From an uncultured Candidatus Saccharibacteria bacterium (GTDB lineage: Bacteria > Patescibacteriota > Minisyncoccia > Portnoybacterales > UBA2143), in the NCBI GenBank assembly GCA_964594155.1, contig CAZQLH010000004.1, positions 1 through 57,642 of the forward strand: a DNA stretch of 57,642 bases, written 5' to 3'. Both the position numbers and the translations under genes were made by a program. The notes under the pieces were generated by a model that saw nothing but the letters and a program-made list of their open reading frames with translations, did not search any database and had not been told where the DNA came from. Positions 33,602 through 36,561 of the stretch are shown piece after piece; position 1 is the first letter of the stretch; each line of letters begins with the position of its first letter.

Positions 33602-34783
33602 ATGAAGAAAAAAGAAATTTATCTTGATAATTCAGCTACAACATCGGTTGACCCGGCTGTTTTTAAAAAAATGCAGCCGTATTTTTATCAAGAATACGGC
33701 AATCCTTCATCTGTTCATAAGTTAGGCGAAAGATCCCGTAAAGCAATGGAAAAAGCTCGCGAACAATCAGCTGATTTTTTAAATTGCCTTGATGAAGAAA
33801 TATATTTTACTGCTGGAGCAACTGAAAGCAATAATTGGCTGATTTACGGAGTAATTGATAAAATCGCGGAAGAGGGTTCAGTTAAGCCGCATATTATCAT
33901 TTCTGCTTTTGAGCATAAGTCAGTTATTGAGCCAGCAAAGAATTTAGAAAAGAATGACTTGGCTGAGCTAACTCTTTTGACAGTTAGCAAAGATGGATTG
34001 GTTGAATTAGAAGTTCTAAAAAAAGCAATTAAGAAAAATACCAGATTGATTTCAATAATGTATGCTAATAATGAAGTGGGTACTGTTCAGCCGATTAGAG
34101 AAATAGGCAAGCTAATTAAAGAAATTAATCAGAAAAGAAAACATAAAATCATTTTCCACACTGACGCAGTTCAGGCAATTAATTACCTTGATTGCAATGT
34201 TGATTCCCTGGGAATAGACGCCTTATCTCTTTCCAGCCATAAGATTTACGGGCCTAAAGGAGTAGGCATCTTATACCTTAAAAAAGGAATACAAATTAAT
34301 CCTTTAATTCAAGGAGGCGGGCAGGAAAGAAATATGAGATCAGGCACAGAGAATATAGCAGGCATAGTTGGCTTGGGCCAAGCATTAAAAAGAATTAAGT
34401 CTTTAGATTCTAATCAAAGCATTAAAAAATTAAGGAACAAATTAATCACTGGTATTTTAAAAGATATTCCTGATTCGCAGGTAAATGGTTCCATGGAATA
34501 TCGTTTGCCTAATAATGCTCATATTAGCTTTAAGGGAGCAGAAGGCGAAAGCATTGTTATGGCTTTATCGCAGAAAGGCATTTTTGCTTCTACTGCTTCA
34601 GCTTGCGCCAGTCGTTCTCTAAAACCTTCCTATGTCCTATTAGCCATTGGCTTATCTCCAGAACAAGCTCATTGCAGCGTTCGTTTTTCTTTGGGCAGAT
34701 GGACAACTAATCAAGATATAGAATATGTTTTAAAGATTCTGTCAGATATTATTAAAAGATTAAGGAAAATATCAGGGAAATAA
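33602..34783 (+). CDS. iscS: Cysteine desulfurase
   Basis: YLDNSATT, GNPSS.H, AGATESNN, EH.SV, ANNEVG, HTDAVQA, SSHKIYGPKG, RSGTEN and STASAC. Confidence 0.93.
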   Translation: MKKKEIYLDNSATTSVDPAVFKKMQPYFYQEYGNPSSVHKLGERSRKAMEKAREQSADFLNCLDEEIYFTAGATESNNWLIYGVIDKIAEEGSVKPHIIISAFEHKSVIEPAKNLEKNDLAELTLLTVSKDGLVELEVLKKAIKKNTRLISIMYANNEVGTVQPIREIGKLIKEINQKRKHKIIFHTDAVQAINYLDCNVDSLGIDALSLSSHKIYGPKGVGILYLKKGIQINPLIQGGGQERNMRSGTENIAGIVGLGQALKRIKSLDSNQSIKKLRNKLITGILKDIPDSQVNGSMEYRLPNNAHISFKGAEGESIVMALSQKGIFASTASACASRSLKPSYVLLAIGLSPEQAHCSVRFSLGRWTTNQDIEYVLKILSDIIKRLRKISGK

Positions 34784-34787
34784 AAAT

Positions 34788-36308
34788 ATGTATACTAAAA
34801 AAGTTATTGATCACTTTCAAAAACCTAAGAATATGGGTAAGATGAAAAACCCAGATATTGTATCTGAGGTTGGTAATCCAACCTGCTTACTTCCTAGTGA
34901 AAAAGTTTTCCTTAACCCTGAATTTACAGCAATAAAAAACACAGATAAGAAAGATTTGATTTTTTCTCATGATGCTTCAAGAAATAAAATTATTGGTAAA
35001 AGTTCAAGAAATTACAAAGGAAAAATAATTGAGTTTAAGAATGCCTTGGGTAAAATATCTTTAACACCAGAACATCTTATTTATGCTTTAAAACTTCCTA
35101 AGCATTCTAAGTATTTTAGGATAAAACATAAACAAGAATTAATTCCTGCTTGGTATCATGCAGAATATTTAAAAAAAAGAGATGTAGTCCTTTATCCTAT
35201 TTCTAAAGAAGTAAGAGATATAAAATATATTGAAATTGATATTTCTAAGAAAAAGTTCGATTTTAAAAGCATTGATATTCCTAAAAAAGTTAAATTGAAT
35301 TCTGAGTTATTAAGATTATTTGGCTATTTTTTAAGTGAAGGCAATATTCAAGATAAACCTAGTAAAACATATATTTCGTTTAGTTTGAATATAAAAGAAG
35401 AAGATATAGTAGAAGATATTAAAAAAACATCTAAAAGATTATTTGGATTAGATGTAAAAATAAAGGAAATTCCAGAAAGAAAAGTAGTTAGAGTATTTAT
35501 TTATAATGCTCAATTAGCAAGATTTTTTAAACAATTATTTGGAAATGGCGCAGAGCATAAAAAAATTCCTGATTTTATTATGACTCTTCCTTTAGGTAAG
35601 CAAAAATCATTAATAAAGGGATTTTGGAAAGGCGATGGTTATATTAATTTGGATAGGATTGGATCAAGAGCTGGATATGCAACAATTTCATATCATTTAG
35701 CTCAACAAATAAAACTACTTTTAATAAGGCAAAAAATTATCCCTTCAATATATGAAGAAAAAGAAAAAGAAGTCAATGGAGTAAAACATAAAAAAGCTTA
35801 TAGAATACATGTAGGACATAGAGATTCATTGAAAAAGTTGTGTAAGATTTTAGGAATAAAATATTATTCCAATAGTTCTTATAAAGCAACTATTTCTTGG
35901 TTTGATAATAAATTTTTATACACCCCTATAACTAAAATAAGCAAAAGAAATTATAAAGGAAAAGTCTATAATTTAGAAGTTGAAAATACACATTCTTTTT
36001 TATCAGAAGCTTTTGCGCTTCATAATTGCGGCGATACAATGCGCCTTTATCTTAAAATTAAGGATAATATAATAAAAGACATTTCTTTTGAAACAATGGG
36101 TTGCGTAGCAGTCATATCAACTTCATCAATGATTACTGAAATGGCTAAAGGTAAAACACTTGATCAAGCAATGAAAATTTCATATAATGATGTAGCTGAA
36201 GAATTGGGCAAGTTGCCGCCTATTAAAATGCATTGCGCTGGCTTAGCAGTAGAAGCTTTGCAAAAAGCAATTAAAAATTATGGCTGTTCCAAAACAAAGA
36301 CACACTAA
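34788..36308 (+). CDS. iscU: Fe-S scaffold IscU/NifU interrupted by an intein (125-aa extein)
   Basis: YTKKVIDHFQKPKNMG...GNPT | CGD.M.LYLKI...F.T.GC..AI.TSS...K.HC..LA; downstream of iscS. Confidence 0.92.
   Translation: MYTKKVIDHFQKPKNMGKMKNPDIVSEVGNPTCLLPSEKVFLNPEFTAIKNTDKKDLIFSHDASRNKIIGKSSRNYKGKIIEFKNALGKISLTPEHLIYALKLPKHSKYFRIKHKQELIPAWYHAEYLKKRDVVLYPISKEVRDIKYIEIDISKKKFDFKSIDIPKKVKLNSELLRLFGYFLSEGNIQDKPSKTYISFSLNIKEEDIVEDIKKTSKRLFGLDVKIKEIPERKVVRVFIYNAQLARFFKQLFGNGAEHKKIPDFIMTLPLGKQKSLIKGFWKGDGYINLDRIGSRAGYATISYHLAQQIKLLLIRQKIIPSIYEEKEKEVNGVKHKKAYRIHVGHRDSLKKLCKILGIKYYSNSSYKATISWFDNKFLYTPITKISKRNYKGKVYNLEVENTHSFLSEAFALHNCGDTMRLYLKIKDNIIKDISFETMGCVAVISTSSMITEMAKGKTLDQAMKISYNDVAEELGKLPPIKMHCAGLAVEALQKAIKNYGCSKTKTH
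34884..36026 (+). mobile_element. 381-aa intein with LAGLIDADG homing endonuclease
   Basis: Starts CLLP (C1), block B LTPEH, LFGYFLSEG and IKGFWKGDG motifs, block F VYNLEV, ends LHN followed by Cys+1. Confidence 0.93.
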
Positions 36309-36561
36309 ATCAAGAAGAAATAAAAGACGTTCACACCATGCTTTGAAAAAGAAAGCGCTTTTTACTTGTCCAAAATGCAAAGAACTTGTTTTGCCTCATC
36401 GGCTTTGTCAAAGCTGCGGAACTTATGCTGGTCGAGAAATAATTGATGTTTTATCTAAATTAAATAAAAAAGAGCGGAAGAAAAGAGAAAAAGAAATGGC
36501 TGAGCAGGAAAAAGAACAGGTTAAAGAAAAAGAATTAAGCATGCAAGAACTTTCAAAATAA
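36280..36561 (+). CDS. rpmF: 50S ribosomal protein L32
   Basis: [23 protein letters not shown]...PHR.C..CG.Y; charged C-terminal extension. Confidence 0.95.

Follow-up and report, generated by a model that had tools for sequence, protein, structure and literature searches.

A LAGLIDADG intein, probably a homing parasite, before the first ligand cysteine of an iron–sulfur scaffold gene in an uncultured bacterium

The interrupted scaffold gene and its intein

Our study examined a 57,642 nt stretch of DNA from an uncultured Candidatus Saccharibacteria bacterium (assembly GCA_964594155.1, contig CAZQLH010000004.1, positions 1 to 57,642 of the forward strand), hereafter called the window, and in particular a single intact open reading frame (ORF) of 506 aa plus stop at positions 34788–36308 (+). 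This ORF encodes the precursor of a NifU/IscU-type iron–sulfur (Fe-S) cluster scaffold together with an intein. The precursor splits into an N-extein of 32 aa, an intein of 381 aa and a C-extein of 93 aa, and the joined exteins amount to 125 aa. The insert is 1143 nt long and is placed exactly between codons 32 and 33 of a 378 nt spliced coding sequence (CDS), with the junctions GNPT/C upstream and HN/CGD downstream (slashes mark splice junctions throughout). These lengths and junctions had been proposed in a first-pass annotation made from the letters of the sequence, and splitting the ORF reproduced them exactly. The features of the precursor and of its two neighbours are as follows, where counts out of 161 refer to the distinct homologues aligned in this study.

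34788–36308, + strand: precursor ORF, the scaffold interrupted by the intein (ORF call, Pfam, NCBIfam, AlphaFold2 model)
34788–34883, + strand: N-extein, 32 aa, ending GNPT; colinear with codons 1–32 of the intein-free relatives L063 and L066
34884–36026, + strand: intein, 381 aa (CLLPSEKV…SEAFALHN), a double-motif LAGLIDADG homing endonuclease nested within a HINT splicing domain (domain, PDB-sequence and Foldseek matches)
34884–34895, + strand: block A, CLLP; Cys1 (Cys33 of the precursor) is the predicted first nucleophile, undergoing an N-S acyl shift; Cys in 161/161
35064–35075, + strand: block B, TPEH (TxxH motif), precursor residues 93–96; Thr and His in 161/161
35307–35345, + strand: LAGLIDADG motif 1, LLRLFGYFLSEGN, including LRLFGYFLSEG, with predicted catalytic Glu184; Glu in 161/161
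35610–35645, + strand: LAGLIDADG motif 2, LIKGFWKGDGYI, including LIKGFWKGDGY, with predicted catalytic Asp283; Asp in 160/161 and Glu in one
35961–36026, + strand: blocks F and G, KVYNLEVENTHSFLSEAFALHN, with penultimate His412 and terminal Asn413 (predicted succinimide formation); TIGR01443 match, both residues in 161/161
36027–36308, + strand: C-extein, 93 aa plus stop, starting CGD (CGDTMRLY…); superposes on IscU 4eb5_C
33602–34783, + strand: NifS-type cysteine desulfurase, the sulfur donor partner (Aminotran_5 5e-81; TIGR03402 FeS_nifS 477 bits)
36280–36561, + strand: rpmF, ribosomal protein L32 (ORF list; conserved bacterial synteny marker)

The insert has the features of a class-1 intein, namely Cys1, the block B TxxH motif, a terminal His-Asn followed by Cys+1, in-frame insertion and a HINT fold. 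It also has those of a LAGLIDADG homing endonuclease (HEN), with two motifs bearing acidic residues, and with the empty sites in relatives and the horizontal spread described below. Pfam searches of the precursor returned NifU_N in two pieces (3.8e-36), LAGLIDADG_3 (1.9e-15) and Intein_splicing (1.3e-07), and among the NCBIfam models TIGR01443 (intein_Cterm) scored 29.6 bits, above its cutoff of 15.6; partial matches were also found to intein-containing Tes, RNA polymerase A'', GyrA, DnaB and RecA.

An AlphaFold2 model of the precursor, built with 41 homologues, reached a predicted local distance difference test (pLDDT) score of 88.4 and a predicted template modelling score (pTM) of 0.80. Compared with the PDB by Foldseek, the intein part matched TliVMA (2.6e-22), PI-SceI, PhoVMA, PI-PkoII and PI-PfuI. 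The probability was 1.00 for the modelled HINT fold against the TliVMA and PI-SceI inteins, and I-DmoI matched the nuclease core. By sequence, the nearest solved relatives were PI-PkoII (5.8e-11) and PI-SceI. The window intein shares with TliVMA/PhoVMA (7qsu, 7qss, 7qst), PI-SceI (1vde, 1lws), PI-PfuI (1dq3) and PI-PkoII (2cw7) the combination of HINT and nested double-motif LAGLIDADG domains (Foldseek 2.6e-22 to 4.5e-14). However, identity in the structural alignments is only 12–19 %, and the hosts of those solved inteins are V-ATPase, DNA polymerase and ribonucleotide reductase, with no Fe-S scaffold among them. Domain matches, motifs and modelled fold thus agree with the first-pass call of a full LAGLIDADG intein.

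The host protein was identified as a scaffold by its NifU_N match (PF01592, 124.5 bits against a cutoff of 22) and by the adjacent cysteine desulfurase gene, nifS, which ends 4 nt before the scaffold ORF and whose best NCBIfam match was TIGR03402 (477 bits, below the cutoff of 530.75). Cys+1 (36027–36029; Cys414 of the precursor) belongs to the CGD motif and has two roles, as the predicted second nucleophile of splicing and as the first cluster ligand; the other two ligand cysteines lie at 36102–36104 (Cys439) and 36234–36236 (Cys483). With Asp416 these form a ligand set that corresponds to residues 33, 35, 58 and 102 of the spliced product, and the ligand cysteines and the aspartate at +3 are invariant in the family alignment wherever the position is present. 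The sequence, the model and conservation across the 161 homologues bear out the initial claim that the first ligand cysteine, within the GxxxCGD motif, doubles as the +1 nucleophile. The C-extein model superposed on Archaeoglobus fulgidus IscU (4eb5_C) with 57 % identity and a root mean square deviation of 1.2 Å over 91 columns (Foldseek).

The name of the host calls for some care. Against the NCBI equivalog models the spliced product scored 170.3 for TIGR03419 (clostridial NifU; cutoff 187.9) and 121.8 for TIGR01999 (IscU; cutoff 192.4). Because both scores fall below their cutoffs, 'IscU', the name first given to the host, can be used in a broad sense only; a NifU/IscU-type scaffold was correctly recognized, but the strict IscU and NifU assignments do not apply. 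By sequence, we regard the protein as a single-domain scaffold of the NifU_N family that is nearest to clostridial NifU. It resembles intein-free scaffolds (A. fulgidus IscU 4eb5; IscU 7c8m; TIGR03419) in its three ligand cysteines and aspartate, its adjacent NifS and a C-extein with 55–57 % identity to solved archaeal IscU, but differs from them both in that shortfall against TIGR03419 and in that the window gene would need protein splicing to yield its product. Downstream, the start of rpmF overlaps the 3' end of the scaffold gene by 29 nt, and the context of the window is bacterial, with NusB, RNase III, L32p and TrmD present.

A same-site intein family in bacteria and archaea

A protein search over 5.8 billion proteins returned 407 clusters, of which the best 120 were inspected; all of these combined NifU_N with LAGLIDADG_3, were 484–554 aa long and shared 56–83 % identity over their full length. 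From GTDB species-representative genomes 62 loci were recovered, 51 of which split cleanly, and a species-level copy found in a separate look-up (L070) brought the total to 52. The 51 loci have junctions of the form G[NS]xx/C…HN/CGD and inteins of 376–384 aa, mostly of exactly 380 aa. Their hosts, by record title, include members of the Candidate Phyla Radiation (CPR), namely Paceibacterota, Nealsonbacteria, Gribaldobacteria and others labelled only as Parcubacteria or Patescibacteria group. Archaeal record titles named DPANN lineages (Nano-, Woese- and Pacearchaeota and Diapherotrites), two Asgard archaea and Methanomassiliicoccus. Almost every homologous locus has nifS upstream of the scaffold gene and in the same orientation.

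Across the 161 distinct homologues Cys1, the block B Thr and His, Glu184, His412, Asn413, Cys+1, the Gly and Asp that follow it and the other ligand cysteines were invariant wherever the position was present. Since every splicing residue is retained in all of them, the intein architecture is not a product of chance. Searched alone, the intein has 6,489 relatives (E<0.001) among representatives at 50 % identity, mostly in other host proteins.

Several features vary within the family. Position −3 of the C-terminal junction (residue 410; 36015–36017) is Cys in 109 of the 161 members (FCLHN/C), but both the window and its nearest relative have Ala there. Cys352 is present in 128 of 161; these extra cysteines near the splice junction could have relevance to the redox behaviour of other members. 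C-exteins span 90–163 aa (variants L008, L010, L013, L016, L019, L027, L033 and L043–L050), and in several clades the scaffold bears a C-terminal extension of 30–70 aa. In some DPANN loci the gap of 0.7–1.3 kb between nifS and iscU raised the suspicion of a second insertion, which was ruled out as the gaps hold ordinary genes (NUDIX, DUF1858, phosphatase and methyltransferase). In the DPANN loci L071 (8738–10000) and L072 (9073–10004), nifS and iscU are parted by small variable genes encoding DUF1858, NUDIX, histidine phosphatase and methyltransferase proteins, with an HTH_5/TrmB-like regulator upstream of nifS. Three giant proteins, P0128 (3308 aa), P0142 (4920 aa) and P0155 (3003 aa), have 7–8 separate stretches that match the intein, and may be multi-intein hosts or polyproteins.

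More distant relatives lie in archaeal RadA, IMP dehydrogenase (IMPDH), AAA ATPase and UvrB proteins, with 27–35 % identity over the HEN and C-terminal splicing region, and the NCBIfam model of intein-containing Tes (NF045703) was matched at 1.8e-21. These inteins occupy other host genes and target sites and represent separate homing lineages. They include the loci L055 (4672–7029), L060 (3–1646), L061 (1363–5244) and L062 (4999–9153), in archaeal RadA (HN/CGRG), AAA ATPase (HN/SRVRD) and UvrB (HN/TFTAA) of Paceibacterota-type bacteria. The IMPDH intein (L056, 4402–7275; L057; L058; L059, 4915–7908) has the junctions GPGSI/C…HN/CTTR, lies directly before the catalytic cysteine and is 27–32 % identical to the scaffold intein; it occurs in, among others, Iainarchaeum, Heimdallarchaeota and a bacterium in culture, Herpetosiphon geysericola. 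The two inteins share the theme of an active-site cysteine as +1 nucleophile.

Surveys of inteins have found their hosts to be mostly proteins of replication, repair and nucleotide metabolism (PMC4760082). The full-text literature that we searched, including the main text of that survey of prokaryotic inteins, yielded no IscU or NifU intein, and NCBIfam holds no model for the intein-containing form of the scaffold. The novelty suggested for an IscU intein in the first-pass annotation therefore stands as far as that literature goes, but not for the allele itself, which is abundant in public metagenomes. The closest parallel is the Mycobacterium tuberculosis SufB (Pps1) intein, which likewise has a core Fe-S assembly host and cysteine nucleophiles at Cys1 and Cys+1. 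That host is a protein of the SUF pathway, whereas here it is a NifU_N/IscU-type scaffold; the insertion site differs, and special sequence kinship between the two was not established. To our knowledge, no cluster-ligand role within a CGD motif has been described for the +1 cysteine of SufB. Taken together, the element is an intein of ordinary type in a host gene that is described in no paper we found, and our study adds an empty site in syntenic relatives, a conflict between trees that spans the domains, and a dating by synonymous sites that shows the acquisition to be recent.

Empty sites, conflicting histories and the age of the window copy

A search with the spliced extein found intein-free proteins of 125 aa at 82–85 % identity. 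In L063–L068 this empty-site scaffold stands within the gene order of the window (NifS-IscU-L32-NusB-RNase III-S16-KH-TrmD), and L066–L068 also match the window in the upstream membrane protein gene. The intein-free relatives keep the same 29 nt overlap of iscU and rpmF, and the 378 nt spliced CDS of the window aligns codon for codon with those of L063 and L066. Distance to the window is about equal for the intein-bearing L026 and the empty L063 and L066, with 66–69 % identity in NifS and 84–88 % in NusB.

Phylogenetic inference from NifS placed the window, L066 (empty), L026 (intein) and L063 (empty) in one clade (support 99), in which L026 is sister to L063. Given this order of the window with the intein, L066 without it, and L026 and L063 with and without it, respectively, its presence must have changed at least twice. 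As a whole, the clade falls outside the main group, with a Gribaldobacteria sequence as its sister (support 100). The intein tree instead nests the window and L026 in a clade of 13 sequences (support 95), eight of which are labelled archaeal. The approximately unbiased (AU) test on the NifS alignment rejected the grouping of the intein tree (p = 1e-7), and on the intein alignment it rejected the host-like grouping at the more moderate p = 0.022.

Pairwise identities are in line with this conflict, as the window and the DPANN copies share 64–68 % identity in the intein but only 44–48 % in NifS. The closest intein relatives, L071 and L072, adjoin archaeal genes for S27e, S24e, Spt4 and RpoE, and the L070 copy adjoins those for RpoK, RpoN and L18e on a 757 kb contig. 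Because one intein family is common to CPR bacteria and several archaeal groups, the sequence data show that it moves horizontally, including across domains.

The age of the window copy was estimated from synonymous sites in the comparison with L026. For the intein, the proportion of synonymous differences (pS) was 0.33 and the synonymous divergence (dS) 0.44, whereas seven host genes, the extein among them, gave pS values of 0.55–0.62 and dS values of 0.97–1.33. GC content at third codon positions (GC3) is 0.13 in the intein and 0.25±0.04 in 34 host ORFs, and as such a low GC3 lowers the level of saturation, the comparison was repeated with a statistic corrected for codon usage. The excess of identical codons at identical amino acids was 0.49 for the intein and 0.20 for the host genes, a bootstrap difference of 0.29 (95 % confidence interval 0.18–0.40), and the uncorrected dS result was upheld. 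The extein was intermediate (0.31, on a small sample), which would fit a short co-conversion tract. On these synonymous sites, the window intein is younger than the host genes around it and a recent arrival.

The ratio of non-synonymous to synonymous divergence (dN/dS) was 0.19 for the whole intein, 0.22 for the HEN part and 0.17 for the HINT part, and five other intein pairs gave similar values. These ratios indicate purifying selection on both the nuclease and the splicing domain.

A low GC3 was also seen elsewhere in the window, which contains seven rRNA introns: two or three of their four LAGLIDADG ORFs have a GC3 of 0.15–0.21. A hidden Markov model (HMM) built from the intein family matched only the precursor among the ORFs of the window. 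As it did not match the rRNA-intron ORFs, which are not close kin of the intein nuclease, the bias common to both does not stem from close kinship.

Splicing, homing and the question of regulation

Our favoured reading, which we hold to be very probable, is that of a canonical class-1 intein with an intact LAGLIDADG endonuclease, which lies in a CPR gene for a NifU/IscU-type scaffold before the first ligand cysteine and which splices and homes as a mobile parasite. Following the conserved chemistry of such elements, the 506 aa precursor would be translated and Cys1 would form a thioester, which would then be attacked by Cys+1, the later cluster ligand. Cyclization of the terminal Asn and an S-to-N shift would release the 125 aa scaffold and the free 381 aa intein. 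The latter is predicted, from its motifs and its evolutionary pattern, to act as a site-specific DNA endonuclease that would cut intein-free iscU at the sequence coding for GNPx/CGD, and repair of the cut allele would copy the intein in. An invariant catalytic motif suits such an element, as it offers a conserved DNA target and a splicing cysteine and does not tolerate imprecise deletion, and it is a typical position for homing inteins.

Several points weigh against this reading or limit it. The rejection of the host-like grouping by the intein alignment at p = 0.022 is only moderately significant and involves the long branch L041. Over all loci, mean pairwise identity is 50.5 % for the intein and 52.7 % for NifS, so that the two are about equally conserved; this is unusually slow change for a parasite, and host-level constraint could be an alternative cause. 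The sample of homologues is biased towards intact endonucleases, since the scan for loci looked for both LAGLIDADG motifs and the protein list consisted of top scorers; complete conservation of the nuclease residues is therefore overstated. Many domain labels of metagenome-assembled genomes are unreliable, and gene context was checked for the window, L070, L071 and L072 only. Finally, we infer splicing and DNA cleavage from motifs, fold and evolutionary pattern.

The first-pass annotation had raised the possibility of redox- or metal-gated control of Fe-S assembly, and our data do not support it: empty sister lineages, a young intein, conflicting trees and an endonuclease under selection indicate a selfish, recently moving element. 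In its strongest form, the intein would be a domesticated switch, in which a disulfide between Cys1 and the ligand Cys+1, or the coordination of Zn, Fe or a nascent cluster, frees the scaffold only under reducing, metal-appropriate conditions and so gates Fe-S assembly after translation in these hosts with their reduced genomes. There are precedents, as the M. tuberculosis SufB intein has been reported to sense stress of the oxidative and nitrosative kinds (Topilina et al. 2015, as cited in PMC4760082; PMC8891592) and a mycobacterial DnaB intein as a sensor of oxidative stress (PMC6195587). Both nucleophiles are cysteines and invariant in the family alignment, Cys+1 stands beside the other ligands in the modelled, IscU-like C-extein, and the family is near-constant in length and, overall, as conserved as NifS. 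However, very close syntenic relatives live without the intein, and its presence is polymorphic in the closest clade of the window, so the host does not keep it as a fixed trait, a criterion that served here as a working test of domestication rather than as a formal definition. The window copy is also a recent horizontal arrival, and its endonuclease is intact and under selection, as expected of a homing element. Furthermore, the extra cysteines are not universal, as seen at position −3, where the window has Ala. The two nucleophiles are both available for disulfide formation or metal binding, a necessary feature but an unspecific one, as oxidation could trap any intein with Cys1 and Cys+1. 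We consider a domesticated switch improbable, and gating by redox or metal state, although chemically reasonable, is speculation that the sequence data do not favour. CPR and DPANN organisms appear to depend on a minimal NifS/NifU pair, and a wider conjecture would have a Cys1–Cys+1 disulfide, or metal or cluster binding, arrest splicing, so that scaffold supply in these organisms would sense redox or metal state, with the element also tracing direct exchange of DNA between CPR and DPANN; we rate this as unlikely, if marginally less so than the domesticated switch.

The patchy distribution could also be read as that of an old intein inherited vertically with a nifS-iscU cassette, with repeated precise loss producing the gaps and transfer of the whole cassette producing the cross-domain pattern. 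The near-constant presence of nifS upstream of the intein-bearing gene agrees with this, as do the correlated pairwise identities of intein, extein and NifS (Spearman 0.46–0.60) and the agreement of the trees for Methanomassiliicoccus, the Asgard pair, L027/L033 and L008/L013. For the window lineage, however, the NifS and intein histories clash in the AU test, the intein is far closer to the DPANN copies than is NifS, and its dS is under half of the values seen in the flanking genes, extein included, which makes vertical inheritance of the cassette very unlikely. An assembly chimera, or an inactive and decaying remnant, might be suspected from the metagenomic origin of the sequence and the anomalous GC3 of the intein, but we give this scarcely any credence, as the ORF is unbroken, no catalytic residue is missing, dN/dS is about 0.2 and at least 52 further genomes share this architecture. 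In addition, assembled contigs of four metagenome runs cover this stretch, although the source data set may be among them, and in two runs a single contig crosses both junctions with zero differences. No joint skipping the intein was seen among these contigs, which is uninformative on rare alleles.

With these alternatives weighed, we see in the intein most probably a genetic parasite that has to splice efficiently enough for its host, rather than a dedicated regulator. Current annotation pipelines miss or misname scaffold genes split in this way, as there is no NCBIfam model for them and the scaffold intein cluster P0078 appears at NCBI as '2-oxoglutarate ferredoxin oxidoreductase subunit beta', a misname that was probably transferred via the intein part.

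In summary, a widespread and well-preserved intein in an Fe-S scaffold, with a cluster ligand as its predicted nucleophile, adds a metabolic host to the known range of inteins. It also provides a clean natural test case for conditional splicing, as one and the same thiol would have to serve in splicing before it could bind the cluster. Perhaps more useful is what was learnt about its evolution: a family that is constant in size and site, and younger in the window than the genome around it, marks recent gene flow, between domains as well, among uncultured organisms of ultra-small size.

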